A stretch of 64,000 nt of DNA from a bacterium (GCA_037132275.1 JBAXPK010000005.1:3122-67121), one strand, 5' to 3'. Positions 7,053 through 35,247 are shown, counted from the stretch's first letter. Notes: a model not told the origin generated them from the sequence alone. Made by a program: numbers and translations.

Positions 7053-7207
7053 GGCTATAGACCTCCTTTAGCGCTTACGTCACCAAGAACTTGGGCAATT
7101 TCCCAGACTTCATCCCGCTTGACAATATCAAAAACGTTCGTGTAACGTTTGAAGATGATTTTATCCGAAGTCCGGGATCGTGACGGAGAGAAAGTTGGCG
7201 CGCCAGT

Positions 7208-9226: not shown

Positions 9227-9333
9227 TCGTCCCTCTGCGAAAGGAGCGCCATGGTCTATGTTTCGACGCGTGAATTGATGCAGCGGGTCCCGTTGGGTCC
9301 GCTGGCGTAATTGAAGACAGGGAGGAACAAACA

Positions 9334-10611: not shown

Positions 10612-10640
10612 CGGAGTTGATTTAGTAAAGGAGCACAGGG

Positions 10641-13016
10641 ATGGCGAAATACGGACGGTTCGACGAGCAAGCGCGAGAGTATGTGATCACCCGGCCCGAT
10701 ACGCCGGCACCGTGGATCAACTATCTCATGGGCCGGGACGTGAATGCGATCGTGTCGCAGGCTGCCGGCGGGTTGGCATTTTACAAGGAGCCTTCCGAGG
10801 GCCGGCTTACGCGGTACCGGTTCAACGGCCTGCCCGTGGACAGCCCGGGATTCTACCTCTACATCCAGGACGGCGAGACCACGTGGAACCCGTCATTCCG
10901 GCCCACCTGCACGCCGCTCGACCGGTTCGAGTGCCGGCACGGGCTCGGATACACCCGGTTCGACTCCGAGCGGAACGGCATTCGAGCGGACGTGACCTAC
11001 CTGGCGCCGCTCGAGGACGACGTCCTGTTGTGGTCCGTCCGGCTGACCAACAACAGCCGGTCGCCGCGCCGGCTCAAACTGACGAGCTACATGGAGTTCT
11101 CGCTCCATGAATACGTCAAGGATGCGCTGTGGTACCTGGTCTGCGGCAACCAGTGGCGGTTGACGTTCGACCGGAAGGCGAACGGCATCAAGTCCCGGTA
11201 TTTCGCGTTCCAGAGTGTTTTCAAGGGGCAGTGCATCTTCGCCTCCACTGCTCCGGTGCGGGCATTTGAAATTGACCGGGACCGGTTCATCGGTTTTGGC
11301 CGTTCGGAAGCCAATCCGGTTGGACTGGAGCGCGGTCTGTGCAATTCCGAGATTCCCGATGGCGGACGCCACGCCTGCGGCGCACTGCAAAGCGCGATTG
11401 TGCTGGCTCCGGGCCAGACCCGTCACGTGCTCTACCGCTACGCGGTGAGCAAGACGTTCGCCGAGAGCGCGCGGATCCTGGCCCGGTATCGGACCGAGCG
11501 GGACGTCGAGCGGGCGAAGGCCGGAATCGCCCGATTCTGGGATGGGGCCTTGGGAAGCGCCCAGGTGCGGACCCCGGATCGGGCCGCCAACGTGATGCTG
11601 AACACCTGGCTGCCCTATAACATTCGCGTCACGTTCCGTTTGGGCCGTTCGGTTTCGAGCCGCCATACCGGCACGGCCGGCGCGCTGCGCTATCGCGACT
11701 CCATGCAGGATGCCATGCCGGCGCCCCAATTGTTCCCGGTCGACGCCCGCGAGCGGATCGAGCGGATCCTGCACACCATGTACGCCGACGGCCACTGCGC
11801 CATGGGCGTCAATCCGGAAACGCTCAAGCCGTCCCCTGAAGAAAAAGACCTCAACCGCAGCGATGCCGCCGTGTGGGGCGTGTTTACGGTGTACCAGTAT
11901 CTCGCCGAGTCCGGCGACCTGGCGTTTCTTAACCGCGTCCTGCCGTATCTGGACAAGGGCGAGGGGAGCGTGTTCGAGCATCTTCTCCGCAGCCTGACGT
12001 TCATCGCCGAACACACCGGCAAGGACGGACTGCCGCAACTTTTCACCGTGGACTGGAACGACTTCCTGCAAATCTTCACGGTGTCCTACACGGGGTGCCA
12101 GAGCGTGATGGTGGCCCAGCAGTTCATCTACGCCACGCGCCTGCTGACGGAAATGGCGGAACAACTCGGGCGCGGGAAGGACGTCGCGAAACTGCGCGCG
12201 GCCTGCACCCGGTTCACCCGGGTTCTCGAGTCGAAGAAATGCTGGGACGGCGATTGGTATCGCCGGCTTCTCGGGGACAATCTGGTCATGGGATCCAAGC
12301 AGAACCGGGATGCCAAGATATTCCTCAATACGCAGTCGTGGGCGGTGATCGCGGGGACGCTTGACGGTAAGCGTGTGACCCGGGCCATGAACTCTGCGTA
12401 CAAGCGCCTCAACACGGAATTCGGCCTGCGTATCTTTTCTCCCGCCTTCTGGACCATGCCCGACGGCAAGACTGAGGTTCCGTCGAACACGCCTGGCGCC
12501 GGCGAGAATGGCGGAATCTTTGTGCATGCCAACATGTGGGCGATCATGGCCGAAGCGCTGTTGGGCCGGGGTGACAGGGCATGGCAGTACTTCTCGCAGG
12601 TTCTGCCGCCGAAGCAATCGGAGCGGGATCCGGATCGCTATGCCAACGAACCGTACGCGTTTACCTCGTGGATCTATGGGCCGGATCACGAACGCTATGG
12701 GACCGCACAGCTCTCCTGGCTGACCGGCGGGACGGCGTGGATGTACCTGGTGGGGCTGGAGTACATTCTCGGCGTACGGCCGACCCTGGCGGGGCTCCGG
12801 ATAGACCCCTGCATTCCGGCGCGGTGGAAACGGTACTCGGTCCGCAGGCGTTGGCGGGGTACGCTTTACGACATTACGGTCGAAAATCCGTCCGGGATCT
12901 GCAAGGGCGACGTGGCCTTGCAGGTCGATGGCGAGCCCATCGAGGGCAACCTCCTCGCGCCCACGGAATCCCGGTATGTGAAGGTGCGGGCAGTGCTTCG
13001 CCGGCGTGAAGTCTGA
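10641..13016 (+). CDS. GH94-family glycoside phosphorylase (cellobiose/N,N'-diacetylchitobiose phosphorylase-like, 791 aa)
   Basis: N-terminus 'GRFDEQAREYVITRPDTPAPWINYL' matches the characteristic GH94 N-terminal motif (MKFGYFDD..EYVIT.P.TP.PWINYLG). Length of about 790 aa fits. The (alpha/alpha)6 region carries 'WNDFLQ'. Confidence 0.65.
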   Translation: MAKYGRFDEQAREYVITRPDTPAPWINYLMGRDVNAIVSQAAGGLAFYKEPSEGRLTRYRFNGLPVDSPGFYLYIQDGETTWNPSFRPTCTPLDRFECRHGLGYTRFDSERNGIRADVTYLAPLEDDVLLWSVRLTNNSRSPRRLKLTSYMEFSLHEYVKDALWYLVCGNQWRLTFDRKANGIKSRYFAFQSVFKGQCIFASTAPVRAFEIDRDRFIGFGRSEANPVGLERGLCNSEIPDGGRHACGALQSAIVLAPGQTRHVLYRYAVSKTFAESARILARYRTERDVERAKAGIARFWDGALGSAQVRTPDRAANVMLNTWLPYNIRVTFRLGRSVSSRHTGTAGALRYRDSMQDAMPAPQLFPVDARERIERILHTMYADGHCAMGVNPETLKPSPEEKDLNRSDAAVWGVFTVYQYLAESGDLAFLNRVLPYLDKGEGSVFEHLLRSLTFIAEHTGKDGLPQLFTVDWNDFLQIFTVSYTGCQSVMVAQQFIYATRLLTEMAEQLGRGKDVAKLRAACTRFTRVLESKKCWDGDWYRRLLGDNLVMGSKQNRDAKIFLNTQSWAVIAGTLDGKRVTRAMNSAYKRLNTEFGLRIFSPAFWTMPDGKTEVPSNTPGAGENGGIFVHANMWAIMAEALLGRGDRAWQYFSQVLPPKQSERDPDRYANEPYAFTSWIYGPDHERYGTAQLSWLTGGTAWMYLVGLEYILGVRPTLAGLRIDPCIPARWKRYSVRRRWRGTLYDITVENPSGICKGDVALQVDGEPIEGNLLAPTESRYVKVRAVLRRREV

Positions 13017-13017: not shown

Positions 13018-16000
13018 TTACATCCCGGGGTTCATAATGGGAAATGAACCCAGGTTCTGATTCTTCGGGGGTGGAACAAGGGCTTTAAAGGGCGGGGCGT
13101 CGCGCAGGGGTGTGAATCGCGGGTCATCCCGGAGAAGTGCCCGCGCCACTTCGCCGCCCACTTCGATGGCCTTCCGCAGGGATCCGAATGCCTCTTGAGG
13201 TTTATTGATCATGAATTGGGTATAAGCCAGATCAATCCAGCTCTTAAAGGCATTGGGGTCGCGCGTCAGGTACTTCTGAAGCGCATAGACGCGCAGATCC
13301 CAACGTTTGTTCGCCTCAAATAACCGGGCGACCGCCAGACAGGTTTCAGGCGGAAGGTTGGTGCTGTCCACCAAACCGCGGGTCAGCCCCTGGAACGGCC
13401 CTTCCATCCCAAGGCGGAGATAGACGGTGGCCAATTCCATGGCGTTTCCGAAATCCAACTTCCCGCTGGCCATCTGTTTTTCAAGATCGGTTCGGCGGGT
13501 GTTGTCTCGCTCCGCGCTCTTGATGGACTCGAGAAAATTGGCGGCATTGGCGTTGAGGGGATCGAGTTTTTTGTACGCCGTCATGACCACGGCGGCGTCG
13601 GCGTAGCGCTGCTGGCGCATGTAGAGATCAGCCAACCGGAAGCAGGCCTCGGGACTCTCGGGGCATAACTCGCGTGATTGCTTGAAGGCATATTCTGCCT
13701 CGGAAACCAGCCCGCGCGCCGCATACAGGCCGGCAATGGCTGACCGCATTTTCGAGAAGGATTTCTTGGCATCGGAGTTGCGCAGGAAGTCCTCGCGGGC
13801 AATAAACTCCCGTGTGAGTTTGTCCCAGTAACCGCGATCCCGCGCTATGATATCGGTCCATAGTTGTGGATTCTCCTGCGGGGACGGCACGGGATCTTTT
13901 TCGATCTTCATGATCACCCCGTAGGGGGTCAGGAAGGCATACATCCAGGGGATGACATAACTTTCCTCCACATAGAAGGCATGTTTGTCCTTGTTGCGGT
14001 CGAAGATCCAGCGGGCCAGGATGCCGTTGATGGTCATCACGCCGCCCACGCCCTGGACACTGACCCGTCCGTTTTCGATCTTGATGTCGGCGCTGGCGGG
14101 GATTTTCCCGGTTTGAACGTCGCGGACATATTCCTGGAACGCCCGGTTGTTGTCCTCGGCGCTGGGGATATAAATGGGCTGAACCGGATAGGTATGATCA
14201 CGGTGGAGAAGGCGTTGGAAGGGACCGTTATTGGCCGGCCGCGAGTAGTCGTAATGATCGCGGATATAACTCATGTAGGTGTTGTCGGCCAGGGCGTTCT
14301 GGGTAATGATATACACGTCGGAACGGTCAAAGTCTTTGTCGCGGAAGCGATCCTTGGGCGCCACGCGGCTTTCGCAGAAGATCATGTAGGTCGGCACGAA
14401 ACGGCCCGGGTCGGTGCCGCCGTAAAGAACCGAGTCTTTTTCCATAGGCTGATAGCCGTTGCCCGGGTTGAACATCAGGTACCCGAAAAGGTACCCGAAA
14501 TCATAGCCGCGCAGGTTGCACAGCGACCAGTTCTGTTTCCAGGTCACGAGGGGCATGGCGAGGAGGGCGATACAGGCCACGCGAACCACGATGGGGCCGA
14601 TGATCTTGTTTTTCCAGGCCAGGATGCTGAACAGAACGGCGAGTCCGTAGCCGATCAGCATGGCGTAGAATCCATGGGCGGGGGCGAAGAACTTGATGTT
14701 GATCTCCTGATCCTGCCGATCCAACTTCGGATTGATGATCGTCAGAAGACCCAGGCTGGTGATCAGGAAGGCAACCCAGATAAACGCCAGCCAAGCGCGG
14801 CCGCGGGGTTTGAATCCTTTCCACCAGTACAGGATCACCACAGGAGTGAGCAGACCCATGCTCAGTATTGTGATCGCGAAAAACACAATCCATTCAAGGG
14901 TACTAGGTTGGGTGCGCATCCAGAGCAGGGACATGAATATCGCAATGAGCAGGACAAGTCCCAGCAAGGGAAGTGACCAGGCGTTGATGGTTTCCAAGAG
15001 AGGGCGTAAGGCGGCGGGAAAGTGATTGAAGACGGTATCAGGGAACGAGTACTGATTGATCAGCGCCTGAATGAACAGCTTGATCTTGATGAAAAACTCC
15101 TCGCTGAAAAAACTGGCCGTGTGGATTTTTTCGTATTGGCCCCGGGTGACGGCGTGGACAAAGCCCTCCTTGGTAGCGGCGTAGCCCCAATTCATGGGCG
15201 GATTGGTGGCGGCGGCGAACGGCATATAGATGTACACACTGACCCCGGCCATGAAGCACGCCGCGCAGGTGAGCGCCCGGCGGGTATCCCACCAGCCGGT
15301 CATTCTTGCGATGATGACTGCGGCAATTCCGAGTGCCCCGCAGGCGATTCCCTGCCAGAAGGTGGAACTGTTGAACATGGCCGATGTGGTGGGTTCGGTA
15401 AGCCAGGCCCAGATGAGGAGACCCACCAGCAGACTGAAGAAGCCGGCCGTGGCCAGTTCAAGGAAATTGAACTGGGTTTTCATGAACAGGCTCACCTGAT
15501 TCGGGGCCGTCGGAGATTTCTGGCGCGCGGCCAGGAATTGCTCGAGACCAACTAGAAAAACACCGATCGCAATAGGCGCGCCCATGACGACAATAGTCTG
15601 GTGATTGGAGAGGCTGAGCCCGAAGATCAGCAGCATTGCGTAAAGGAAGCCACGGCGGTGGGGTTGCATCATCCAGGCGAAGAAGATGCAACTGATCAGG
15701 ACAAAGGAAAAGACGTTGAGCACGCGCATTTCCGAAACGCAGGCCCACAGCCAGACCCCGCGATTGAAGCCGAAGAGAAGCGCGCAGCTTGAGCCGATAA
15801 ATAAGGCCATCCAGTGCTGAAGTCGTTCGCTGAGGGAGTCGCCCCAGGGAAGCGAATGAAGCAGCAACCGCAAGCTTCGGGTCATGATGATGGTGGTAAA
15901 ACCAACCGTTAGGGCGCCTGTGACGACGGACATCAAAGCCATACGCCAGGCAGGATTACCGAAAGGCACAATAAAATGGCACCAGATATAGCCCAGCAAC

Positions 16001-16263
16001 GCCCAGAGGGGGTAACCGGGCGGATGCGGGACCCCGAAGGAAAAGGCGCCGGTGACTAATTCGCCGGAATCCTGCAAGGTGACTTCCGGGGCCATGTAAT
16101 AGAAGAAGGCCAGGCCGGAGATGAGTGTTGTGAGCACCGCGGCAATCCAATCTTCCGGCTTGAAGAAGTGTTGGAGGCTCTCGGTGGGTTCTTCGATGAT
16201 GTCAGGAGCCGACACGCCGGATCCTGTTTTGTTTACGGTTTGAGATACGGTATTGGATGACAT
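13018..16263 (-). CDS. DUF2723/PMT-like (GT-C fold, protein O-mannosyltransferase-related) polytopic membrane protein with C-terminal TPR repeats (~1080 aa)
   Basis: N-terminal 'PPGYPLWALLGYIW' loop motif as in PMT/ArnT-type GT-C enzymes, followed by at least 15 predicted TM helices. The C-terminal ~250 aa have TPR-like repeats ('ACFRLADLYMRQQRYADA', 'LATVYLRLGM'). Start chosen at the ATG at 16263, which has a GGGAGAG SD-like element upstream. An alternative upstream ATG lies at 16371. The stop is 1 nt from the stop of the convergent GH94 gene. Confidence 0.6.
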   Translation of the reverse strand: MSSNTVSQTVNKTGSGVSAPDIIEEPTESLQHFFKPEDWIAAVLTTLISGLAFFYYMAPEVTLQDSGELVTGAFSFGVPHPPGYPLWALLGYIWCHFIVPFGNPAWRMALMSVVTGALTVGFTTIIMTRSLRLLLHSLPWGDSLSERLQHWMALFIGSSCALLFGFNRGVWLWACVSEMRVLNVFSFVLISCIFFAWMMQPHRRGFLYAMLLIFGLSLSNHQTIVVMGAPIAIGVFLVGLEQFLAARQKSPTAPNQVSLFMKTQFNFLELATAGFFSLLVGLLIWAWLTEPTTSAMFNSSTFWQGIACGALGIAAVIIARMTGWWDTRRALTCAACFMAGVSVYIYMPFAAATNPPMNWGYAATKEGFVHAVTRGQYEKIHTASFFSEEFFIKIKLFIQALINQYSFPDTVFNHFPAALRPLLETINAWSLPLLGLVLLIAIFMSLLWMRTQPSTLEWIVFFAITILSMGLLTPVVILYWWKGFKPRGRAWLAFIWVAFLITSLGLLTIINPKLDRQDQEINIKFFAPAHGFYAMLIGYGLAVLFSILAWKNKIIGPIVVRVACIALLAMPLVTWKQNWSLCNLRGYDFGYLFGYLMFNPGNGYQPMEKDSVLYGGTDPGRFVPTYMIFCESRVAPKDRFRDKDFDRSDVYIITQNALADNTYMSYIRDHYDYSRPANNGPFQRLLHRDHTYPVQPIYIPSAEDNNRAFQEYVRDVQTGKIPASADIKIENGRVSVQGVGGVMTINGILARWIFDRNKDKHAFYVEESYVIPWMYAFLTPYGVIMKIEKDPVPSPQENPQLWTDIIARDRGYWDKLTREFIAREDFLRNSDAKKSFSKMRSAIAGLYAARGLVSEAEYAFKQSRELCPESPEACFRLADLYMRQQRYADAAVVMTAYKKLDPLNANAANFLESIKSAERDNTRRTDLEKQMASGKLDFGNAMELATVYLRLGMEGPFQGLTRGLVDSTNLPPETCLAVARLFEANKRWDLRVYALQKYLTRDPNAFKSWIDLAYTQFMINKPQEAFGSLRKAIEVGGEVARALLRDDPRFTPLRDAPPFKALVPPPKNQNLGSFPIMNPGM

Positions 16264-16439
16264 GAAAACACTCTCCCTGGAAACAATGACTGCTCCAAAT
16301 ATCTTGCGGAATCTATCAGAATCGCCTTGTGATGCGCAATGACTAAGAGTCTGCAATAAATGGCGGGACAACCCGTGAACTCAATGGACAGTTATTTCGC
16401 CATCCGTTATAACTTCAGCCCTATCAAGGAGCATAGGTT

Positions 16440-16697
16440 ATGGATGTCAGATCAGTTATTGACGTTGAGCAGAGGTTAATTCAGGAGGTGGCACTCATCT
16501 TGTGCAAGGAGCCTGCCGCCATCAAGCCGGATGTTTCCCTGCCGTCGCTGGGGTTGGACTCCATGGGATTTGTGGAATTGCTGGTGGTGATTGAAAAAGC
16601 TTTTGGCCTCCGCCTGATCGAATCCGGACTCACCCGCGAGGATTTTGAGACCATTCATGCGCTTGCCGCCCGTATCAGCAAGGAAGCCCCGGGATGA
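16440..16697 (+). CDS. acyl carrier protein (85 aa, stand-alone)
   Basis: Phosphopantetheine-attachment motif 'LGLDSMGFVELL'. The stop overlaps the next start (ATGA). Confidence 0.7.
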   Translation: MDVRSVIDVEQRLIQEVALILCKEPAAIKPDVSLPSLGLDSMGFVELLVVIEKAFGLRLIESGLTREDFETIHALAARISKEAPG

Positions 16698-18013
16698 GGG
16701 TCAGTCTTCCGTATTCCAAAAACCGGCGCTACCTGACAGGCATCGACTGGACCATCGGCGCGCTCGATGCCATGACTCGTCGCGCCACCGGCGGAAGCAA
16801 TACCTTTCAGATAGTTCTGGAAATTAAGGGACCCCTTGAGCCAGCCCGATTTCAGGAGGTGATCGCAGCGTTTGTCCGGCAGTTCCCGGTGTTGGGGGGG
16901 CGCCCGTCGCGGGATTGGACGCTGGCGCCGTATTGGAAAATGCCGAGACCGGGCAGTCGGGTTCCTGTTTCCGTAGAGTTCACCCAGGTTGAGGGACAAG
17001 ATAGTGCCGCTCTTCTCGAAGAAAGCGCCAACCGGTGTCTGCCTGATCGTCAGTCGCATGTGGCGTTCCGGGTATTCCATGTCAACGTCTCCCATCATTT
17101 CATTGCCGTACAATTTGATCACCGGCTGTTTGATGCGACCGGCGCGGAAACCTTCCTTGGGCTTCTCCACCGCTGGGCCATCGGAGAAGACTGCAGTGCG
17201 CAAATCCGGCAAATTTCGCTCAAAGAGCCGGCGCATCTCTGTGATTGGATGAAAAAATTCGAGGCGGGGAAATTGCTGGTCCGGCTGTTGCGCAAATTTG
17301 CGGAGTCGCCACTGGCTGTGCTTCCACGTCCGGCGGCCTTGAAAGGGCGTCGTACCCGGTTCAGCATCATGGAGTTCAGCGCGGAAGAGACGAAGGCGAT
17401 TTCCATGCGGGCCTCGCAGGAGGCGGGATTCCTGATGTTCATGCCCTACACGCTGGCGGTTTCTCTTGAGGCGCTCGCGCCAGCCTTTGCCCGGCGGGGC
17501 ACCGGGGGAGGCGATTATCTGGTTTCGGTCTCGGTTGATCTGCGCCCGCCTGAAGCGGCGCCCGCCTGTATGTTCTTCAATCATGTGTCGTTTATCTTTT
17601 TCCAGATTCCTGCGGCGATCCTCCCGGATCGGAAGGCCTTGCTGAAGGCCCTGCGACTGCAGATGTACGAGCAGATTCAATGCGGATTCCCCAAAGCCTT
17701 GTATGAATCCAGTATGGTGATGCGTATTCTGCCCCTGAGCGTGTTGAGCCGCTTGATGTTGAAACCGCTTCGCGGCGAATTTGCCTCACTGGGCTTTACC
17801 TGTGTGGGGAAGAGCGGTTATGCTTTTGACCGTTTTATGGGGGCTGAACTGGTGAACCTGATTCACATGCCGCTGGTTCCCGTTCCGCCCGGCATCGGCT
17901 TTTTTATCAGTCAGTCCGGCCCGAAAATGAATGCCGTGCTGTCTTTTGTGGAGGGCATGTTGACCGATGAGGAGGCGCGGCGCTTTCAGGATGATGTGCG
18001 GCGTCTACTGTAA
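16694..18013 (+). CDS. condensation-domain/PapA/WS-DGAT-like (CAT superfamily) acyltransferase, 439 aa
   Basis: Size and region 'VSHHFIAVQFDHRLFDATGAE' resemble the HHxxxDG catalytic motif of C-domain/PapA5/WS-DGAT acyltransferases, in a degenerate form. Translationally coupled to the ACP. Confidence 0.4.
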   Translation: MRVSLPYSKNRRYLTGIDWTIGALDAMTRRATGGSNTFQIVLEIKGPLEPARFQEVIAAFVRQFPVLGGRPSRDWTLAPYWKMPRPGSRVPVSVEFTQVEGQDSAALLEESANRCLPDRQSHVAFRVFHVNVSHHFIAVQFDHRLFDATGAETFLGLLHRWAIGEDCSAQIRQISLKEPAHLCDWMKKFEAGKLLVRLLRKFAESPLAVLPRPAALKGRRTRFSIMEFSAEETKAISMRASQEAGFLMFMPYTLAVSLEALAPAFARRGTGGGDYLVSVSVDLRPPEAAPACMFFNHVSFIFFQIPAAILPDRKALLKALRLQMYEQIQCGFPKALYESSMVMRILPLSVLSRLMLKPLRGEFASLGFTCVGKSGYAFDRFMGAELVNLIHMPLVPVPPGIGFFISQSGPKMNAVLSFVEGMLTDEEARRFQDDVRRLL

Positions 18014-18015
18014 CG

Positions 18016-19191
18016 ATGAAGTTCACCTGTGATGTGTTGATTGTGGGCGGCGGTGTGGCTGGTGTTCCGGCCGCCGTGGCGGCGGCCAGGGCTGGCGCGG
18101 ATACCCTGTTATTGGAGAAGCGGGACTTTCCGGGCGGAACCGGGGTAATCGGTCTCCATAGGACGATTTGCGGCCTCTATTGGAATGGCGAAGCCGTGGG
18201 GACACCTCTCCCGTTACTCAACGGTGGGCTGGTGCGGGAAGTGTGTGTGCGTCTGCATGACCTCGCGCCGGAACGGCGGCCGGTCAGGCTCGGTAAAGTC
18301 GACGTGCTGCCCTATGACTCCGAGCACCTCCGGGCGATCTATAGTCAATTGATGGGCGCCGAGGCCCGGTTGCGCGTCTTGTTGGGTGTTGAAGTCACCG
18401 GCGTTTGCCTTGAAGGGGGGCGCGTGTTGACCGTGGCGGCGGGGGAGCACACGATCATTCCGCAGGTCGTGGTGGATGGTTCGGGCGACGGGGTTGTCAT
18501 TCGGGGCGATCCGGCCTTGCATGAGCCGCCGCCGCTAATCGGGCGTCAATTGGCGGGTTACGTTATTCATTTGGACGGGCTCAGCGGCAGCGACGATATG
18601 CTGCCCATCAAGGTGCCCTATGCCATCCGGCAGGGGGTTGACGCGAAGACCCTTCCTGCGTGTCTTCGGTTTACAACGTTTGTGGCGGGAGGGGGCCGGA
18701 ATGAGGGCTGGTGCAAGTTGAGTGTTCCTTCGGGAACGCCCCTTGCGACGGCGCAGGAACTGGCGCAGCGGTTGCATGACGCGCTTCAGGAGGCCTTGCC
18801 TTCGGCCCGGGAGTCGCGGATCATCGGCAGTTCACCGGACGTGCTCGAGCGTGAGGGCGCGCGGCTCAAGGGGCTGTATACCCTTACGGCGGAGGATGTA
18901 TTAGGGGCGCGTCAATTCCCGGATGCTATTGCCCGGAGCGCCTGGCCGATTGAATTATGGGATCCGGAACGGGGGCCCACATATCGTTATCTTGAACCGG
19001 GAAAGGCCTGCGGCATTCCTGCGGGGTGCCTGAAAGCGGCGGCTGCCAGTAATTTATATTGTGCTGGACGCTGTATTTCGGCTACGCATGAGGCCTTGGC
19101 GGCAACCCGTGTGATGGGAACCTGCATGGCGCTCGGTGAAGCGGCCGGCCGGGAAGCGGCTTTGCAAAGTGGTGGCGGTGAACAGAGTTAA
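18016..19191 (+). CDS. FAD-dependent oxidoreductase (FAD_oxidored/PF12831-like)
   Basis: N-terminal dinucleotide-binding motif 'DVLIVGGGVAGVPAAVAAARAGADTLLLEK'. Confidence 0.6.
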   Translation: MKFTCDVLIVGGGVAGVPAAVAAARAGADTLLLEKRDFPGGTGVIGLHRTICGLYWNGEAVGTPLPLLNGGLVREVCVRLHDLAPERRPVRLGKVDVLPYDSEHLRAIYSQLMGAEARLRVLLGVEVTGVCLEGGRVLTVAAGEHTIIPQVVVDGSGDGVVIRGDPALHEPPPLIGRQLAGYVIHLDGLSGSDDMLPIKVPYAIRQGVDAKTLPACLRFTTFVAGGGRNEGWCKLSVPSGTPLATAQELAQRLHDALQEALPSARESRIIGSSPDVLEREGARLKGLYTLTAEDVLGARQFPDAIARSAWPIELWDPERGPTYRYLEPGKACGIPAGCLKAAAASNLYCAGRCISATHEALAATRVMGTCMALGEAAGREAALQSGGGEQS

Positions 19192-20620
19192 CATAGTTGA
19201 TGTCATCCGTCGGGAGACGGGGGCGGTTCATGGAAACGTGGCGATCGTGGATGGTGCGATCGAGCTTTCCTATGGGCGGCTTCTGGATGCTGTAGACGGG
19301 GTTGTGGCGGCTTTGAAGCAGCAGGGTGTCCAGCCCCTGGATCGTGTCGCTTTCCTGTGTGAGGACTGCGCCGATTATATCATCGGCAGCCTCGCCATTC
19401 TCCAGTTGGGCGCCGTGGTGGTTCCGGTGTCGCCTTCCCTGATGGGGGACGAATTGGCGGAGTTGCTCGAACGCATGGATGTGACGGCTGTGCTGAGCGA
19501 CGCGTCGGTCGATCAAGAAAAGGGCGGTATTCTGTTGACCGGTTGCGGCTTTATGGCCCGTGAGTTTGTGATGCATGGTCGTGTGGCCCGGAACGATTTT
19601 CCGGAAGACTATAAAAGCCTGAATCCGGCCTTTATCCGCTTCTCTTCCGGGACCACCGGCTCAAGCAAAGGGGTGTTGCTGTCGCATGAAACGATCCTGG
19701 CTCGCACGGAAGCCGCTGACCAGGGACTTCGGATTACCAGCGTCGATACCGTGATCTGGGTGCTCTCGATGAGTTTTCATTTTGTCGTCACTATTCTACT
19801 CTACCTGCGCCGGGGGGCGACGGTGGTGATTTGCCGCCAACCCTTTCCTGAATCATTTCTTGAGGCGGCCAAGGGACGGAAGGGGACCGTATTTTATGCC
19901 GCTCCTTTCCACTACCATGTTCTTGCCACATCGCCGTTGGTGTCGGCAGATTGTCTCAATGGGGTCCGGTTGGCGGTCTCGACGGCGATGAAACTGTCGC
20001 GCGAGACGGCGGTGGCGTTCAAGACAAAGTTCGGGTTTGATCTGGCCGAGGCCTATGGGATCATTGAGCTCGGATTGCCCTTTATCAATACGGAGGACCG
20101 CCCGAAGAAGCCGGGTTGTGTCGGGCATCTCCAGCGGGGCTATGAGGTCAGGATTGAGTCGCCTGGCACAGATGGCGCGGGGGTGATTTTGATCCGTGGG
20201 CCGGGGCTGTTTGATGCCTATGTATCGCCTTGGAAAAGCCGTCGGGATGCGGTGCAGGACGGCTGGTTCAATACCGGGGATGTGGGGCGGCTGGATGCCG
20301 ATGGCGATTTGACCCTCCTTGGACGTGAGAAAAACGTCATCAACTTTGTTGGCATGAAAATATTCCCTTATGAAGTTGAGGATGTGCTGGCCTCCCATCC
20401 GGCGATTCAGGAATGCCGGGTGTACGGCGAGGCTCATCCGCTTTTTGGGCAGATGCCGTGTGTGGATGTGGTGGTGAAACCAGGCTTGGCGGCGCCCGGC
20501 GCGACGGATCTGCGGCGATATTGTTATCAGCGGCTGGCCGCGCATAAAGTTCCCAAGGAATTCCGGTTTGTCGGGCATCTGGCTCGAACAGTGAGCGGCA
20601 AAATCAAGAGGGCCGGGTGA
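19136..20620 (+). CDS. AMP-binding (adenylate-forming) enzyme, fatty-acyl-AMP/CoA ligase-like
   Basis: AMP-binding motif I 'FSSGTTGSSKGVLLSHE'. The C-terminal 'GWFNTGD' and 'GREKNVINFVGMKIFPYEVE' fit the ANL superfamily. The track start at 19136 overlaps the upstream gene by 56 nt. An in-frame GTG at 19238 (after the upstream stop at 19189-19191) is a more likely start. Confidence 0.75.
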   Translation: MKRPAGKRLCKVVAVNRVNIVDVIRRETGAVHGNVAIVDGAIELSYGRLLDAVDGVVAALKQQGVQPLDRVAFLCEDCADYIIGSLAILQLGAVVVPVSPSLMGDELAELLERMDVTAVLSDASVDQEKGGILLTGCGFMAREFVMHGRVARNDFPEDYKSLNPAFIRFSSGTTGSSKGVLLSHETILARTEAADQGLRITSVDTVIWVLSMSFHFVVTILLYLRRGATVVICRQPFPESFLEAAKGRKGTVFYAAPFHYHVLATSPLVSADCLNGVRLAVSTAMKLSRETAVAFKTKFGFDLAEAYGIIELGLPFINTEDRPKKPGCVGHLQRGYEVRIESPGTDGAGVILIRGPGLFDAYVSPWKSRRDAVQDGWFNTGDVGRLDADGDLTLLGREKNVINFVGMKIFPYEVEDVLASHPAIQECRVYGEAHPLFGQMPCVDVVVKPGLAAPGATDLRRYCYQRLAAHKVPKEFRFVGHLARTVSGKIKRAG

Positions 20621-21342
20621 ACATGAAGCCGACGCTCACACAAGACGAGGAGCAGGTCACCGCGCATGAATACGACCAATGGCTTGCCCGGGATTCGCTG
20701 AGCGCGCGATGGGTCAGATTCTGGTTTTCACCCAAGCGGACGCTCTGGCTAAACACACAAATCCCCAAACTTCCTGCCGCCATTTCACTCAAACCCGGGG
20801 ATTCCATACTGGATATTGGTTGTGGATATGGGGGATTGCTGATCTATCTGCATCGGCGGCTCGCGGCGACCGCAGGCAGGCTTCAGTTAGAGGGGGTGGA
20901 TAGTTCCCCGTTGATGGTCCAGCGAGCCAGAGACGAGATTCAGCAGCGTGGACTGGAGTCCGCCATTCGTATCGAGCAGGGAGTCGCAACGCAACTGCCT
21001 TATGAAGACCATTCCTTTGACGTTATTTTATGTGCCTATGTGATCAAGCACCTGTCTGATGAGTCACTCCGGCACATGCTACGGGAGGTAAAGCGGGTTC
21101 TGAAGCCCGGGGGCAGGTTCTGCCTTTGGGAGGCGACGCCCTCCCGATTCGGGTTCATGAATGTGTGGAATCTGATGCTGTTACGAATCGGGATTTCAGT
21201 GATTCATTTGCGCTCCGCTGAGGACGTCGGTAGAATTCTGGAAGAAGAGGGCTGGGTGATTCAGCAACCCTTTGGCCACGGCCTGTATTATTTCTATCCG
21301 CCGCTCCCCCGCGCGGGGTTCATTGTGAGACGTAAGGCGTGA
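20617..21342 (+). CDS. class I SAM-dependent methyltransferase (241 aa)
   Basis: Motif I 'ILDIGCGYGGL', post-I acidic 'LEGVDSS' and motif 'LKPGGRF'. The start overlaps the ligase stop (ATGA). Confidence 0.7.
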   Translation: MNMKPTLTQDEEQVTAHEYDQWLARDSLSARWVRFWFSPKRTLWLNTQIPKLPAAISLKPGDSILDIGCGYGGLLIYLHRRLAATAGRLQLEGVDSSPLMVQRARDEIQQRGLESAIRIEQGVATQLPYEDHSFDVILCAYVIKHLSDESLRHMLREVKRVLKPGGRFCLWEATPSRFGFMNVWNLMLLRIGISVIHLRSAEDVGRILEEEGWVIQQPFGHGLYYFYPPLPRAGFIVRRKA

Positions 21343-21944: not shown

Positions 21945-23024
21945 ATGGTTGAAAACAGAACGAAAAGAGATGCCCAGTCCGGTCCGACGGCAATTGAGAT
22001 CCGTAATGTGAGCAAGCGGTTTGGCGCGGTAGCCGCGCTCGATGAAGTGTCGTTTGCGGTGCAGCCGGGCGAAATGTTTTTTCTCATCGGGCCGTCAGGC
22101 TGCGGGAAAACCACGCTGCTTCGTATTCTGGCCGGCTTGGAGACGCCGGATTCCGGGACGGTTTTTTTTAATGGCCGGGATGTGGCCTCGCTTCCGGCGC
22201 ATGAGCGCGGGGCGCCGATGGTGTTTCAGAATTATGCCCTTTGGCCACACCTGAATGTCCGCGACAACGTGGCCTTTGGGTTGGTGGAGCGACATGTTTC
22301 CAAAAGCGAGGTTTCGACCAGAGTTGAGGATGTTCTGAAGCGAGTGGGACTTGAGGGGATGGGAACACGCCTGCCAGGGCAACTCTCCGGAGGACAGCAG
22401 CAGCGGGTGGTTTTGGCGCGTGCCCTGGTTCTGAATCCCTCCGTGATCCTGCTTGATGAACCGCTCTCCAACCTCGACGCCAAATTGCGCGTCGAGATGC
22501 GGCAGGAGATTGAAAAACTCCGGCGCGATACCGGCATCACGTTTGTCTATGTGACCCATGACCAGACGGATGCGCTGGCCCTGGCTGACCGGATGGCGGT
22601 GATGGTGGCGGGAAAGGTGTCCGCCATCGGAACCCCGCTTGACCTTTATGCCCGCCCGCCGAATCTTTTTTGCGCTGATTTTCTGGGAGAGGCGAATTTT
22701 ATCGAGGGTCTGGCGAATGAGGGGACGGTTCAGACGAAGCTGGGCACGTGGAGGGTGGGAGAGTACTCCTTGTCTGGTTCGGTTGTCTGTCTGGTGCGGC
22801 CGGAGAATATCCAAGGCGTGGAGGGGGATGGTTCCGGGATGAATGTATTTGAGGCGGACGTGACCGGGGTGCGGATCAATGGCGCCACGGTGACGGTATC
22901 GTTGGCAGTGGCCGGGCAGGCCCTGAAGGCGACCCTCCTGACGCAGCGTAGTCTGGGGATCAGGTCGGGAGATCGCCGCATGTGGGGGATTGCGCCGGAG
23001 AATGTGGTGCTGTTGCATCCATGA
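21945..23024 (+). CDS. ABC transporter ATP-binding protein (PotA/FbpC/MalK-type importer ATPase with a C-terminal TOBE-like domain)
   Basis: Walker A 'GPSGCGKTT', signature 'LSGGQQQRVVLARAL', Walker B 'ILLDEPLSNLD', H-loop 'YVTHDQ'. Confidence 0.85.
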   Translation: MVENRTKRDAQSGPTAIEIRNVSKRFGAVAALDEVSFAVQPGEMFFLIGPSGCGKTTLLRILAGLETPDSGTVFFNGRDVASLPAHERGAPMVFQNYALWPHLNVRDNVAFGLVERHVSKSEVSTRVEDVLKRVGLEGMGTRLPGQLSGGQQQRVVLARALVLNPSVILLDEPLSNLDAKLRVEMRQEIEKLRRDTGITFVYVTHDQTDALALADRMAVMVAGKVSAIGTPLDLYARPPNLFCADFLGEANFIEGLANEGTVQTKLGTWRVGEYSLSGSVVCLVRPENIQGVEGDGSGMNVFEADVTGVRINGATVTVSLAVAGQALKATLLTQRSLGIRSGDRRMWGIAPENVVLLHP

Positions 23025-24715
23025 AAGCTCGCTTCGGAACATCCGTCATCGTCGCGCTCATTGTGGCCACGCTGGGAGTTTTTCTGGTTTGGCCGATGGC
23101 TCATGTATTCTCCCGGTCGTTTTGGGATCCGCAGGGCTTTACTCTGGTCTATGTTGCCGGACTTTTCACCCATGCCGTTCACCTGGAGTCGGCCTTCACG
23201 AGTTTTATCATCGCCACCAGTGTCACGGCCTGTTGTGTATTGGTCTCCCTGCCGATGGCCTGGCTGTTTGCCCGCCGGTCGTTCCCCGGCAAGGCGGTCT
23301 GGTCGGGGCTGCTTCTGCTTCCCATGATCCTTCCGCCCTTTGTAAGCGCGGTCGGTATGAAAATCATCTTTTCGCGTGCCGGGGCCTTGAGCACCCTCTT
23401 GATGAACCTTGGGCTGGTGGACGGGCCGGTGGACTGGCTGGGGCATTTTCCCCTGTTCGGGATTGTGCTGCTTGAGACGCTGCATCTCTTTCCGATTCTT
23501 TTCCTGAATCTGGTGGCCTCGCTGGCAAATATTGATCCCTCGCTTGAAGAGGCGGCCATGAATCTCGGGGCTTCCCCGGCGCGTGTCTTTCGTCGCGTTA
23601 CGTTACCGCTGGCGATGCCCGGATTGTTTGCGGGAATGACGCTGGTGTTCATCTGGTCTTTCACGGAACTGGGGACGCCCCTGGTTTTCGGGTTGCGACG
23701 GGTGTTACCGGTGGCGATCTACGACAGCGTGGCCGAGATCGGCACCAATCCCTCGGGTTATGCGATGGTCACGTTCGTTTTGGTGATTTCGGCCATCGGG
23801 TTCTGGATCAGTAAACGCCTGTTGTCCCGCCAGCGATCGGTCGCCACGCTGGGCCGGTTAAGCCAGGCCCGCCGGGAAATTCCCTTATCGTTCCGCGGTT
23901 CCCTCCTGGTCTATCTGTTGGTGGGCGGGGTATTGTTTGCGGCCATTCTTCCCCAGCTTAGCGTGGTGCTGTTATCGGTCAGTCACCGTTGGTTTCTTAC
24001 GGTTTTACCCCAGGGCTTCACGGTGGAGTTCTTTGGCCGGGCGCTCAATTCCGAACTCACCCGGACGGCGTTGGTGAACAGCCTCTCATTTTCCTTGTGT
24101 GCGACCGTCCTGGATCTTCTGCTCGGCTTTGGCATTGCGTGGCTGTGCGTCCGGAAGCGGATCTGGGGAAGCGACTGGCTGGATGCGCTGGCGATGCTGC
24201 CGTTGGCGGTGCCGGGGCTGGTGATTGCGTTTGGCTACATGGGGTGTTTTTCAGGGACGTTTCCGAATACCCTGCTCGACCCGCGCATGAATCCGATGAT
24301 TCTGCTGTCGGTCAGTTATGCCATACGCCGGCTGCCCTACATGGTGCGTGCGGCGCATGCCGGGCTGGAGCAGGTCAGTTCCACCTACGAGGAAGCCGCG
24401 GCCAATCTTGGGGCCACACCGTTCCGGGTGGTCTGGCGCGTCACGCTTCCTTTGATTTCAGCCAACTTGCTGGCGGGCGCCATCCTGTGTTTCTCCTTTT
24501 CCATGCTGGAGGTGTCGGACAGTCTTATCCTGGCACAATCCGAAAACTTCTATCCCATCACCAAAGCCATTTATGTGCTTCTGGAGAGTCTGGAAAACGG
24601 GTTGAATGTGGCCTCGGCACTCGGGGTGTGGGCCATGGCGCTGTTAGGCGCGGGTATCCTGCTCGCCGCCGCCCTAATGGGAAAGCGACTGGGGCAGATG
24701 TTCCGGGCCGGGTAA
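23021..24715 (+). CDS. ABC transporter permease with two fused transmembrane domains (FbpB/ThiP-like iron(III)/thiamine-type importer permease)
   Basis: About 565 aa with duplicated BPD-transporter EAA-like loops ('EEAAMNLGASPARVFRRVTLP' and 'EEAAANLGATPFRVVWRVTLP'). The ATG overlaps the ATPase stop (ATGA at 23021-23024). Confidence 0.75.
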   Translation: MKARFGTSVIVALIVATLGVFLVWPMAHVFSRSFWDPQGFTLVYVAGLFTHAVHLESAFTSFIIATSVTACCVLVSLPMAWLFARRSFPGKAVWSGLLLLPMILPPFVSAVGMKIIFSRAGALSTLLMNLGLVDGPVDWLGHFPLFGIVLLETLHLFPILFLNLVASLANIDPSLEEAAMNLGASPARVFRRVTLPLAMPGLFAGMTLVFIWSFTELGTPLVFGLRRVLPVAIYDSVAEIGTNPSGYAMVTFVLVISAIGFWISKRLLSRQRSVATLGRLSQARREIPLSFRGSLLVYLLVGGVLFAAILPQLSVVLLSVSHRWFLTVLPQGFTVEFFGRALNSELTRTALVNSLSFSLCATVLDLLLGFGIAWLCVRKRIWGSDWLDALAMLPLAVPGLVIAFGYMGCFSGTFPNTLLDPRMNPMILLSVSYAIRRLPYMVRAAHAGLEQVSSTYEEAAANLGATPFRVVWRVTLPLISANLLAGAILCFSFSMLEVSDSLILAQSENFYPITKAIYVLLESLENGLNVASALGVWAMALLGAGILLAAALMGKRLGQMFRAG

Positions 24716-26332: not shown

Positions 26333-26374
26333 GGCGCTCGCGGCGGCCAGCGGCGTGGCCGCCCTACCCTCCTA
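26330..26374. terminator. GC-rich hairpin between convergent genes (stem GGCGGCCA / loop gcggcg / TGGCCGCC, extended by TAGGGC...GCCCTA); bidirectional terminator candidate
   Basis: Read directly: 'tagggcgctcgcggcggccagcggcgtggccgccctaccctccta'. Both convergent stop codons flank or lie in the stem. Confidence 0.5.
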
Positions 26375-29300
26375 TTCCAGATCCGTGCGCGGCTTGAAGA
26401 ACTTGTCCTGAACCTTCTCCATGTAGAGATAGATTCCAGGGGTGACGAAGAGGGTGATAACCTGCGCGAAAATCATGCCGCCGACGATGACCAGGCCGAG
26501 GGGTTTTCGGCTGGACGCATCGGCGCCGAAGCCCATGGCGATCGGCATGGCGCCCAGGATGGCGCACAGACCAGTCATCAGGATCGGGCGGAACCGCACC
26601 ACGCAGGCGTTGTGAATGGCATCATAACTGTTCATCCCCTCCACTTTCCGTTGCAGGGCAAAATCCACCATCAGAATGCCATTCTTGGTAATCAATCCGA
26701 GCAGGACGAAGACTCCAATGTAGGCATAAAGCGAAAGTTGACTGCCGAAAATGAAGAGCGTCAGAAACCCGCCGAAGAGCGCCACTGGCAGGGTGGTAAG
26801 AATGGTGAACGGGTGGATATAACTCTCATAAAGCATGCCCAGCACGATGTATTTCAGGAAAATGGCAATCAATAGCAGAATGCCGAGACTGGCGATGGAT
26901 TTTTTGAACTCCACGGCATCCCCGATGAAGGAGCCTTGCACGGTGGGGGGGAGTACGGCGGCGGCCTTCGCCTCGATCACAGCCGTGACAACACCGAGCG
27001 GAACCCCGGGAAAGGGGCTGAATGAAATGGTGGCGGCTTCATGCTGTTGGGCATGGGGAATATTCTGGGGACCGGCTTCCTCGGTCCATTTGATGAGCGA
27101 TTTAACGGGAACCAAAGGCCCATACGTGGATCGCAGGAAGAGCAGCGCCAGGTCGTCAGGAAGGCGCTGGTTGGATTTCTGAATTTCAGGGATTACCTGG
27201 TATTGATCCTGGTCGGTGGTGAACTGGGTCGCATAGCCACCGGCAAAAGAAAGAGCCAGTGCCTGTTCAATGGACGTGGCTGTGACGCCCAGCGCCGAGG
27301 CGCGGGTACGGTCAATGGTCACGTTCAAGCGGGGCATGTTCAGTTTAACGCTGTTCTGGGTGTTGAACGGATTCAGGAAGGGGATCGTCCGGATTTCCCG
27401 CTCCAGAAGAAAGGCTGTTTTATAGACCGTCTCCCGGTCCAATCCCTTGAGGAGATATCCATAATCGCTTCCCTGGGCCGTGGAGTCGACGCCGGAACTG
27501 ATCTTGAGAACCGGCATCGCCTTCATGGCGCAGAGTCCATCGGGGATCATCATCGCTTTCATCATTAGCTTGAAGGAAATTTGGTCAATAGGTTCGCGGG
27601 GTTCACGTTCACGCGGTGATTTCAGGCGGACGAAGACAAATCCCATGCTCTGGTCCGCACCCGGGAAAATGCCGGTGACGCTACCCACGCGGGCGACCGC
27701 AGGTTCCTTCCGTAACAAGCCCATGACCTTGGTCTGATAGGCCTGCATCTGTTCCGTGGAGGATCCTTGCGGCATGATCATGGCGCCGAAGATGAAACTG
27801 CTGTCGCCGGGCGGCAGAAAGTCCCCTGGCAGCACAAAATAGAGGATGCCGGCGCCGAGAATGCAGACGACCCAGGCGACAAGCGCCAACCATTTGTGGC
27901 GGAGTTGGAAGTGCAGTGCCCTGGCGTATTGCCTGATCATGCCCTGGATAAAGGTGGTGATGCCGCGTTGGACAGCATTGGGGGCCTTTTCGTGGTGGAG
28001 GATGCGGGCGCACATCATGGGGGAAAGCGTCAGGGCGAGCAGGGTGGAGACAATAATGGCAAAGATGACGGTAAGCGCGAATTCCCGCAAATTGCGGCCA
28101 ACGGCCCCGCTCATGAATACCAGCGGCAGGAAGACGATGATCAGCGCGGCGCTGGTCGACAGAACGGTGAACGAAATTTCCTTCATGCTTTGCAGGGCGG
28201 CAGGGATGGGCTTTTTTCCTTCCTCGAGATGGCGCACGGTGTTTTCCAGAACCACGATGGCGTCATCCACCAGAAAGCCAACCGCCAGAATGATTCCCAT
28301 CAGGGACAGGATATCGAGGCTGAAGTTGGAGGGCAGCATCAGGAGGAAGGTGCCCAGCAGGGAGATGGGGAGGACGATACTGGGAACGACAGTTTCACGG
28401 ATGCGGCCCAGGAAGAAGAAAATAACCAGAATCACCATCAGAAGGGCAATGCCCACGGTGAGTTGCACGTCGCGAAGGGACTCTTTGATGGGTTCAGAGC
28501 CATTGTACATGGTCACCATGGTGATTGTGGAGGGAAGTTCACGGCGGGATTCCTCCAACGCCTGGGTGACCCGGTTTGCGACGGCAACAGTATTGGCGCC
28601 GCTGACACGCGAGAGGCGCATCACGACGCACTGGCTGTGGATGGGTTCGTCCGCAGTTGTATACCGGATATTCACCAGGTCGTTCGCGATGCTATCCACG
28701 CACCGGGCCACATCCTTTACCCGGATGGGGGCATTGTTGCGGGTGGTAATGATGAGTTCACCGTATTCCCGGGCCGTACGCAGTTGCCCCTGAGGTTCAA
28801 TCACAAACGTGCGTTGGGCTCCATTTAAACTGCCCCCGGGGATATTGGCGGTACCGGCTTTCAGCACCAGGGCCAGTTCATCAACCCCGATTTGATAAGC
28901 GGCCAGTTTCTCGGGGCTGAATTGAATGCGCACGGCGTTCTTGGCGCCAAAGGCCTCAACCTTGGAGACCCCCTCAATCATGCTTAATTTCCGGGCGACC
29001 ACGTGGTTCGCATAGTCGTACAGTTCGCCATGCGGCATAATATCGGAATAGAGGAGCACATAATAAATGGGGGCGTCCGAGGGGTTGAACTTCTGATAGG
29101 TGGGGGGGCTCGGCAAATCGGTAGGCAGGTTTCGCGTAGCCCGGGTGATGGCCGCCTGGACATCCGGTGCCACCAGGTCCACATTGCGATTCAGGCTGAA
29201 TGACAACGTGAGGGTGCTGATACCCTGCCGGTTGTCCGAATACATGGATTCCAGTCCGCTGATCTGGGTGAATTCATTCTCGAGCGGGGTGGCAACCGTG

Positions 29301-35222: not shown

Positions 35223-35247
35223 CCGGATTTCGGCATAATTTCGGAAA

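Follow-up and report, generated by a model that had tools for sequence, protein, structure and literature searches.

In vibriobactin synthesis, a siderophore pathway of the nonribosomal peptide synthetase (NRPS) type, the aryl-acid ligase VibE loads the carrier VibB, which bears an isochorismatase domain, and the free-standing condensation enzyme VibH, with its canonical HHxxxDG motif, acylates norspermidine. PapA5, PapA1/2/3 and the WS/DGAT enzymes, stand-alone members (about 420-510 aa) of the condensation/chloramphenicol acetyltransferase (CAT) superfamily, transfer acyl chains from a carrier protein or from CoA to hydroxyls of lipids or sugars. In the gut bacterium Coprococcus eutactus, the ligase OaaA, the acyl carrier protein (ACP) OaaACP and OaaC are free-standing proteins that form fatty-acid amides, with OaaC acylating free amines from acyl-ACP only, and the OaaC clade (C_FAA) harbors the motif (D/H)HxxxD(S/A/G) in place of HHxxxDG (PMC13310621). 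Here we describe an operon of five consecutive plus-strand open reading frames (ORFs), located at positions 16440-21342 of a 64-kb stretch of bacterial DNA (GCA_037132275.1 JBAXPK010000005.1:3122-67121, 64,000 nt, hereafter the window). The closest described analogue of this operon is the OaaA/OaaACP/OaaC system of gut Clostridia, with no support for membership at the sequence level. We propose, with a probability of roughly 0.5, that the operon is a self-contained acyl-transfer cassette, in which a ligase would load an acid onto an ACP, the acyl group would be tailored on this carrier, and a 439-aa condensation-type enzyme would transfer it to an acceptor.

The operon begins with the gene of an 85-aa ACP (16440-16697, +; PP-binding, PF00550), followed by those of the free-standing 439-aa condensation-superfamily enzyme, for which there is no curated model (16694-18013, +), a 391-aa FAD-dependent oxidoreductase (flavoprotein; 18016-19191, +; PF12831), an adenylate-forming acid ligase of up to 494 aa (19136-20620, +; AMP-binding PF00501 and AMP-binding_C PF13193) and a class I S-adenosylmethionine (SAM)-dependent methyltransferase ending at 21342 (+), which has 241 aa when started at the GTG at 20617 and 239 aa when started at the ATG at 20623. 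These ORFs, and the identities given to them by Pfam and NCBIfam profiles and by fold, bear out an earlier note on this DNA, made from the sequence by a model, which had described a tight operon of these five genes. The stop of the ACP gene overlaps the start of the 439-aa protein gene in an ATGA at 16694, suggesting translational coupling, and TAA-CG-ATG leaves a 2-nt spacer (18014-18015) between the latter gene and that of the flavoprotein, both as the note had it, whereas the second ATGA it had placed at 20617, at the ligase/methyltransferase junction, proved to be a GTGA. The alternative methyltransferase start, the ATG at 20623, lies two bases past the ligase stop and is the one chosen by an independent gene call in another assembly of the same organism. 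Starting the ligase at the GTG at 19136 results in a 56-nt overlap with the flavoprotein gene, and other in-frame GTG starts at 19169, 19172 and 19178 make for an uncertainty of up to 14 codons.

All ORFs of the cassette are intact and have kept their catalytic motifs, and each of the five genes gave a dN/dS of 0.07-0.23 in comparisons with relatives both lacking and containing a ketosynthase (KS) gene, values that are rough, with dS near saturation; the five genes are under purifying selection. The arrangement is not a product of chance, because the order ACP, condensation-like gene, flavoprotein (not in all cases) and ligase recurs in ~80 independent loci of several phyla, and because of the dN/dS values, and so we regard the operon as tight, conserved and genuine. 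Long antisense ORFs within the cassette genes (e.g., 16655-17680, -) were rejected as genes; they are shadow ORFs, whose matches in relatives merely reflect conservation of the sense strand. A simple scan for promoters and terminators yielded nothing above the level of shuffled sequence, and Rfam and tRNA scans of the window yielded no match.

The 439-aa protein matched no Pfam or NCBIfam model: the Condensation profile (PF00668) found nothing even at E<=1, its gathering threshold was not reached, the WS/DGAT profiles (PF03007/PF06974) did not match, and a search of the single sequence against the PDB sequences was likewise without a match. The profile of its family matched the NRPS condensation (C) domain 8xjz_C in the PDB (E 6e-7), with the family motif aligned on HHxxxDG, and also 2-oxoacid dehydrogenase E2 acyltransferases, with the motif placed on their DHRxxDG site. 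When 33 relatives were scanned singly, weak PF00668 matches appeared in 11 (best E 2.8e-5), PF00198 in 6, WS_DGAT_C in 4 (best E about 0.004) and the BAHD family in 3, all four of which belong to one acyltransferase clan. An alignment of 33 diverse members revealed the invariant motif F141-D-H143-x-x-x-D147-A-x-G-A-E152, which keeps the second His and the Asp of the canonical HHxxxDG and replaces its first His by Asp and its Gly by Ala (DHxxxDA); counterparts of the C-domain core motifs C1-C7 were also recognizable in this alignment.

The AlphaFold (AF2) model of the protein (predicted local distance difference test score, pLDDT, of 91.9) has the condensation-domain fold, that is, the two-lobed, V-shaped, CAT-like fold of the NRPS condensation superfamily, and places the variant DH143xxxD147A motif where C domains have theirs, on a loop between a strand (134-142) and a helix (148-162). 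A Foldseek search of the PDB returned 287 matches at E<=0.001, topped by NRPS C, Cy, E and X domains (the teicoplanin X-domain among them), a LovB-type CON domain and TRI3, with E values of about 1e-17 to 1e-19. PapA5 was found neither among the PDB sequence matches at E<=10, whether by single sequence or by profile, nor among the 50 best fold matches; membership of the PapA type is not supported, and no type I polyketide synthase (PKS) or fatty acyl-AMP ligase (FAAL) was found nearby. These profile and model results assign the 439-aa protein to the condensation/CAT acyltransferase superfamily, as a free-standing and catalytically intact-looking member whose family has no curated model. The earlier note had typed it as a C-domain or PapA-like acyltransferase; the superfamily assignment stands, by profile and by fold, and the functional HHxxxDG-type site on which the note had made its reading depend is intact in its His and Asp in all 33 aligned members. 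There is no match to Pfam Condensation or WS/DGAT, and the PapA label would describe a resemblance of the predicted fold only, since no Pfam threshold (Condensation, WS/DGAT or other) was reached.

An exhaustive profile search of 1.84 billion representatives found 413 family members at E<=1e-30, and none of the 150 best matches, all of <=472 aa, was fused to another domain. About 125-220 relatives were present in a word-indexed protein collection, all from metagenomes or metagenome-assembled genomes (MAGs), and the names given to them, where there are any, are "hypothetical" or, from JGI, "NRPS condensation-like uncharacterized protein". One apparent fusion with the flavoprotein (P0104, 556 aa) was rejected as a frameshifted gene call.

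The ACP matched PF00550 with 39.8 bits and displays the phosphopantetheine serine site LGLDSMG; its best NCBIfam match was the cispentacin ACP AmcB, at 45.1 bits and thus below the cutoff of 80. The nearest solved relatives of the ligase are benzoate-CoA ligase and malonyl-CoA synthetase (E about 1e-41), with 4-coumarate-CoA ligase and oxalate-CoA ligase also near (the set spans E 1e-41 to 1e-35). Its residues 154-492 are colinear with residues 165-515 of benzoate-CoA ligase. A second colinear alignment, with the malonyl-CoA synthetase/benzoate-CoA ligase chimera 4gxq, pairs its residues 42-491 with 27-493. By these alignments and its length of <=494 aa, the ligase lacks the insertion of ~20 residues that blocks the CoA-ligase conformation in FAALs, which the earlier note had suggested looking for. 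The A3, A7, A8 and A10 motifs are intact (SSGTTGSSKG, TGD and SGKIKR are present), and the A4 position holds SFHF, as in acyl/aryl-CoA ligases, and not the FDxS aspartate of amino-acid-activating domains, which argues for a carboxylic acid without an alpha-amino group. A comparison of its pocket with those of benzoate-CoA ligase and MatB gave no substrate call. The system is not a canonical NRPS module, every part being free-standing, and neither the scanned window ORFs nor the relatives contained an NRPS gene.

The flavoprotein matched PF12831 with 219.6 bits, and its AF2 model (pLDDT 92.3) matched only generic folds of flavoproteins with two dinucleotide-binding domains, at TM<0.53 (a geranylgeranyl-reductase-like protein, MnmG, succinate dehydrogenase and class A monooxygenases), so no reaction type can be assigned to it. 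Across its family Cys338, Cys353 and Cys370 are invariant, and two more cysteines nearly so. A cluster of cysteines (C338, C349, C353 and C370) lies near the C-terminal FAD-contacting segment and could be a redox-active or metal-binding site. The methyltransferase matches Methyltransf_25, Methyltransf_11 and UbiE-type models and was found in the relatives L006, L008, L011, L012 and L087; these belong to the Planctomycetes-Verrucomicrobia-Chlamydiae (PVC) clade. In most other lineages HpnR-like B12-radical-SAM enzymes take its place within the cassette. Right after the methyltransferase gene and convergent with the operon lies a gene of a small XRE-type regulator (HTH_31, PF13560; 21426-21662, -; 78 aa by the independent gene call), orthologues of which occupy the same position in L006, L008, L011 and L012 (E about 1e-36). 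The gene is thus a sixth member of the PVC-clade cassette and likely encodes its dedicated regulator there.

A genome scan with a 10-sequence subset of the alignment as query, taking one genome per species, found 130 relatives; 80 loci were kept, and their ORFs were typed by seed proteins. The closest relatives in the scan (57-68% identity) come from Verrucomicrobiota or PVC-group MAGs, and the other hosts belong to Nitrospirota/Thermodesulfovibrionia, Desulfobacterota, Geobacterales, Omnitrophota, Kiritimatiellae and Victivallales, along with one spirochaete. Of 84 loci, 82 have the ACP gene next to the condensation-like gene; the flavoprotein gene lies directly downstream of the latter in 66 of 74, the ligase gene is located within 5 kb of it in 53 of 55, and 37 of 39 encode a class I methyltransferase or a B12-radical-SAM enzyme. 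Among the 37 best-flanked loci, all from MAGs (PVC/Verrucomicrobiota, Nitrospirota, Desulfobacterota and Omnitrophota), we counted the ACP in 36, the ligase in 35, the flavoprotein in 34, a KS in 33, a second ACP (ACP2) in 31, a chain-length-factor (CLF)-like protein in 28, an LPLAT protein in 23, a GT2/DUF2062 protein in 22 and a member of the polysaccharide-deacetylase family in 20, whereas a DUF2723 protein occurs in just one, the window itself.

The fullest layout of the PVC clade (L006, L008, L087 and L089) consists of ACP2, KS, CLF, ACP, condensation-like, flavoprotein, ligase and methyltransferase genes on one strand, with the HTH regulator, sometimes a deacetylase and two B12-radical-SAM genes on the opposite strand; in L006, the nearest relative on a long contig (~69% identity), ACP2-KS-CLF comes immediately before the cassette and two B12-radical-SAM genes lie downstream of it. 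In the Nitrospirota, a KS, an unknown gene, two B12-radical-SAM genes, GT2/DUF2062, LPLAT, ACP2 and a deacetylase precede KS, CLF, ACP, the condensation-like gene, the flavoprotein, a B12-radical-SAM gene, the ligase and another B12-radical-SAM gene. The radical-SAM enzyme inside the cassette of these Nitrospirota-type clusters is HpnR-like, and one in L002 matched TIGR04072, "lipid biosynthesis B12-binding/radical SAM" (rSAM_ladder_B12), at 620 bits against a cutoff of 360. In a Desulfobacterota variant the cassette is divergent from a block of LolA, rSAM-SPASM, ACP, KS, phytoene-desaturase-like, ketoreductase (KR) and HemN-like genes.

The window holds none of the genes that extend the cassette elsewhere: in the whole 64 kb there is no KS, CLF, second ACP, radical-SAM, LPLAT, GT2 or deacetylase gene, and so the locus lacks the set of KS, CLF-like pair and TIGR04072 that marks a ladderane- or aryl-polyene-like cluster. 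The window cassette has lost, or never had, both ends of the fullest PVC layout. Cassettes without KS are found in at least five PVC-type MAGs with unrelated flanks (the window, L008, L014/L004, L087 and L088), and in a neighbor-joining tree the KS-less and KS-containing loci of the PVC clade are interleaved. L014, L015 and L016 retain only the ACP, the condensation-like gene and the ligase, and in L014/L004 these three sit among unrelated housekeeping genes; the existence of such three-gene versions suggests that ACP, condensation-like enzyme and ligase are the functional core.

Individual relatives display further features. In the KS-containing locus L089 (11435-20357), ~6 kb comprising SpoU, RtcB, PIN-domain and other small genes separate the flavoprotein from the ligase and methyltransferase. 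The L087/P0046 locus has an amino-acid permease gene directly upstream of the ACP gene on the same strand, possibly a hint to an imported amine acceptor, and, convergent downstream, a polysaccharide-deacetylase-family gene and two B12-radical-SAM genes. In the Nitrospirota clusters L007 (15450-20702), L036 and L040, further genes follow, which encode two DUF2229/HGD-D-like proteins, a fusion of a BcrAD/BadFG ATPase to an amine-oxidase-like flavoprotein, and a 4HBT thioesterase; the set looks like that of a benzoyl-CoA-reductase or 2-hydroxyacyl-CoA-dehydratase-type radical enzyme.

The most economical reading of the cassette, and one that the earlier note had also put forward, is that of a ligase serving a carrier protein, which in turn would serve a transferase. 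We infer the following order of steps. The ligase would adenylate a carboxylic acid, more likely an aryl, small or functionalized acid than an alpha-amino acid or a long fatty acid, and load it as a thioester on the dedicated ACP. The FAD oxidoreductase would then tailor the tethered acyl group, and since the lineages concerned are mostly anaerobic, the reaction is less likely an oxygenation than a dehydrogenation or reduction at a C-C or C-N bond. The SAM methyltransferase, or in other lineages the B12-radical-SAM enzyme acting as a methylase, would methylate the tethered group, and the 439-aa enzyme, with His143 as the general base, would finally move it from the ACP onto a free metabolite or lipid, at an amine or hydroxyl group, releasing the product. 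In relatives with KS/CLF and ACP2, the loaded acyl group is probably also a starter unit, or else the condensation-like enzyme would offload the elongated chain. The frequent deacetylase and GT2 genes of the relatives make a de-N-acetylated sugar lipid an attractive, if speculative, acceptor there; the idea is inapplicable to the window, which has neither gene.

Several observations count against such a self-contained cassette. KS or CLF genes of the type II PKS/fatty acid synthase (FAS)-like kind lie within 10 kb in 33 of the 37 loci, usually directly upstream, and are also neighbors in PVC relatives of 66-70% identity, so the cassette may normally depend on chain elongation. Neither a thioesterase nor a phosphopantetheinyl transferase was found in the ORFs that were Pfam-scanned (window to ~48.5 kb). 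The highest query-normalized TM-score (TMq) among the listed PDB matches of the 439-aa protein, 0.73, belongs to AzeD, a dehydratase according to its depositors, so the fold is no guarantee of acyl transfer. An hhalign comparison of the family profile with OaaC reached a probability of 13.9% (E 0.002) over 108 N-terminal columns (the N-lobe) only. Lastly, all family members are from MAGs or metagenomes. The KS/CLF neighbors bear directly on a possible, if in our estimate rather doubtful, alternative, in which the cassette is only the starter-loading and release part of a type II PKS/FAS-like ("ladderane-like"/aryl-polyene-like) lipid pathway, with its KS/CLF, ACP2 and radical-SAM genes elsewhere in the genome and the elongated methylated lipid or polyketide of the relatives as its product. 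Such a pathway would account for KS, ACP2 and CLF in 33, 31 and 28 of the 37 loci, for the ACP2-KS-CLF and B12-radical-SAM genes flanking the cassette in L006 and for the TIGR04072 enzyme of the large clusters (620 bits, cutoff 360), and it recalls the AmcF, AmcG and AmcB proteins, which the KS, CLF and ACP weakly resemble and among which a ligase-loaded ACP feeds KS/CLF (PMC10698177). It fits less well with 64 kb free of KS, CLF and radical-SAM genes, with the recurrence of KS-less cassettes in at least five PVC-type MAGs of unrelated flanks, with their interleaving with KS-containing loci in the tree, or with three-gene versions lodged among housekeeping genes. The earlier note's claim that the cassette has no PKS or NRPS partners thus holds for the window and a few PVC relatives, and fails for the cassette in general, which has KS or CLF genes nearby in 33 of 37 loci.

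The AzeD match, together with the teicoplanin X-domain among the top fold matches, also lends something to the idea that the 439-aa protein is no acyltransferase, and either modifies the tethered substrate (by dehydration, epimerization or cyclization) or, as in the glycopeptide X-domain, is a docking platform bringing the flavoprotein and methylases to it; tailoring genes do nearly always flank the family (flavoprotein 66/74, methyltransferase or B12-radical-SAM 37/39). We consider this improbable, for the catalytic His and Asp are invariant in 33 of 33 aligned members, whereas X-domains have lost the canonical motif, and the three-gene versions have no tailoring enzyme to recruit; moreover, the DHxxxD(S/A) variant is catalytically active in OaaC (PMC13310621). 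The earlier note had further held an acylated glycoconjugate or unusual lipid to be plausible because of the divergent gene of a giant GT-C-like (DUF2723) membrane protein. In this reading the acyl group would go to a sugar or glycoconjugate made with the protein, which is DUF2723/TMEM260-like and has TPR repeats. Deacetylase (20/37) and GT2/DUF2062 (22/37) genes make an amino-sugar acceptor chemically attractive in relatives, but the window lacks both, the flanks of close relatives differ, GT-C proteins work at the membrane's outer face whereas no export signals seem to be present in the cassette proteins, and with DUF2723 adjacent in 1 of 37 loci the proposal has no basis; we think it very unlikely. 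No more credible is a decaying remnant of a larger cluster whose product is no longer made: compared with L006, L008 and L087 the window does lack the upstream ACP2-KS-CLF and the downstream deacetylase and B12-radical-SAM genes, but its ORFs are intact with preserved catalytic motifs, dN/dS is 0.07-0.23, and the overlapping or abutting junctions and the conserved regulator have been retained.

Returning to the self-contained acyl-transfer cassette, a bolder and distinctly tentative extension of it can be made. In that reading the 439-aa family would be an unrecognized clade of carrier-protein-dependent amide/ester synthases, and in the orphan "ladderane-like" lipid clusters of Nitrospirota, Desulfobacterota, Omnitrophota and PVC bacteria its members would carry out the release or coupling step, attaching a methylated, oxidized acyl chain to a free amine, for instance a de-N-acetylated sugar lipid. 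If this were true, the pared-down cassette of the window would alone make a small N-acyl amide or ester, an environmental lipid or signal molecule of a new class.

The cassette is flanked by genes of a DUF2723/TPR membrane protein, glycoside hydrolases, an ABC importer, an RND efflux system and housekeeping functions, and these flanks differ from those of close relatives. The DUF2723 gene (13018-16371, -) encodes a GT-C protein of ~1100 aa with C-terminal TPR repeats; its TTG start at 16371 is questionable, and were translation to begin at the ATG at 16263 instead, the divergent intergenic region would measure ~176 nt. Beyond it, at 2182-13016 (+), lie genes of an alpha-L-fucosidase, GH2, GH115, GH63/MGH1-like and GH94 phosphorylase proteins, with a PfkB kinase ahead, a run that fits a polysaccharide-degrading PVC-type bacterium. 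On the other side, at 21945-24715 (+), an ABC importer is encoded by a PotA/PhnT-like ATPase gene and a fused double permease gene (PhnU2, ThiP or FbpB type), with no gene of a substrate-binding protein directly after; it is not kept beside the cassette in relatives, and any tie between it and an imported amine would be a guess. Further downstream are an RND efflux operon (26372-32186, -; AcrB-type pump, membrane-fusion protein and outer-membrane factor) and GyrB/ParE-like and GyrA/ParC-like genes (33360-40478, +) split by the gene of a hybrid histidine kinase (1059 aa, PAS and receiver domains), which is an unusual gene to find inserted between those of two topoisomerase subunits.

The cassette is of value mainly as a small and manageable way into the widespread orphan "ladderane-like" clusters. 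What the "ladderane"-type clusters of non-anammox phyla produce is an open question, such clusters having been flagged repeatedly by biosynthetic gene cluster mining (PMC9902471), and ACP, condensation-type enzyme, flavoprotein and ligase constitute a near-constant four-gene module of many of them, which PVC-type bacteria also carry on its own. Three to five soluble proteins are far easier to reconstitute than a 20-kb cluster rich in B12-radical-SAM enzymes, and the reconstituted cassette could show which starter acid and which acceptor are used across the cluster family. There is also a gap in annotation to be filled, for the condensation-like family, with its hundreds of representative sequences, is covered by neither Pfam nor NCBIfam; it is a clade of the condensation superfamily found only in uncultured bacteria. 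Its DHxxxDA motif would tie it mechanistically to the gut-bacterial fatty-acid-amide synthases, and so free-standing carrier-dependent condensation enzymes may be more widespread than NRPS-centered annotation suggests.

As for the known systems, the earlier note could match the cassette to no described pathway, and our comparisons agree, having found no support for its membership in the families of the systems compared here. "Ladderane" clusters have been called by antiSMASH in Verrucomicrobiota, Omnitrophota and Desulfobacterota (PMC9902471), and most relatives of the cassette resemble them in their KS, CLF-like, two ACP, TIGR04072, LPLAT and GT2/DUF2062 genes, and some also in phytoene-desaturase-like, HemN-like, LolA and MMPL genes, none of which is present in the 64-kb window. 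The LolA/rSAM-SPASM/KS block of the Desulfobacterota recalls the clusters of Kuenenia and Desulfotalea that were set side by side in Rattray 2009 (PMC2649909). Neither a condensation-like protein nor this flavoprotein is mentioned in the gene lists of the anammox clusters (PMC2649909, PMC4790861). An anammox homologue, suggested by the order of the ACP kuste3350 and the hypothetical protein kuste3351, was considered and set aside, as neither homologue search returned a named anammox protein (a direct sequence comparison was not made). In the type II PKS-like system of cispentacin and coronafacic acid, AmcH loads 2-oxoglutarate on AmcB, feeding the KS/CLF pair AmcF/AmcG (PMC10698177). The window ACP has AmcB as its best NCBIfam match and the KS of the relatives matches AmcF with 228 bits, but all scores remain below the cutoffs (AmcB 45 vs 80, AmcF 228 vs 325, AmcG 29 vs 80), AmcH is not among the 25 best NCBIfam families of the ligase, the ACP and ligase thus do not qualify as equivalogs of AmcB and AmcH, and the Amc system contains neither a condensation-like enzyme nor a PF12831 flavoprotein.

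The likeness to the smaller systems lies in their logic. A ligase, a carrier and a free-standing condensation enzyme are common to the vibriobactin system and the cassette, and VibH is neither among the 50 best Foldseek matches listed nor among the 13 sequence matches of the 439-aa family. The PapA and WS/DGAT enzymes differ in showing no match at the sequence level and in carrying HHxxxDG where the 439-aa protein has DHxxxDA, and the cassette comes without the type I PKS or FadD-type FAAL partner of the PapA proteins. The Oaa system differs as well, in that the window cassette adds a flavoprotein and a methylase, its family is usually embedded in KS/CLF clusters, and its hosts are from environmental, mostly anaerobic phyla; by sequence (the Oaa proteins were taken from the supplement of the preprint, PMC13310621), the ligase has 25% identity to OaaA (E 1e-21) and is farther from it than from benzoate-CoA ligase, the ACP is barely similar to OaaACP, and the hhalign result does not place the 439-aa family in the C_FAA clade by relatedness to OaaC. 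What the two share is a ligase, an ACP and a condensation enzyme that are all free-standing, linked here in 35-36 of 37 loci, an invariant DHxxxDA that fits the C_FAA motif pattern, and, presumably, an ACP-bound donor, the acceptor in Oaa being a free small-molecule amine. With membership of any of these families not supported, the cassette would thus seem to work like an Oaa, VibE/VibB/VibH or PapA-type system.

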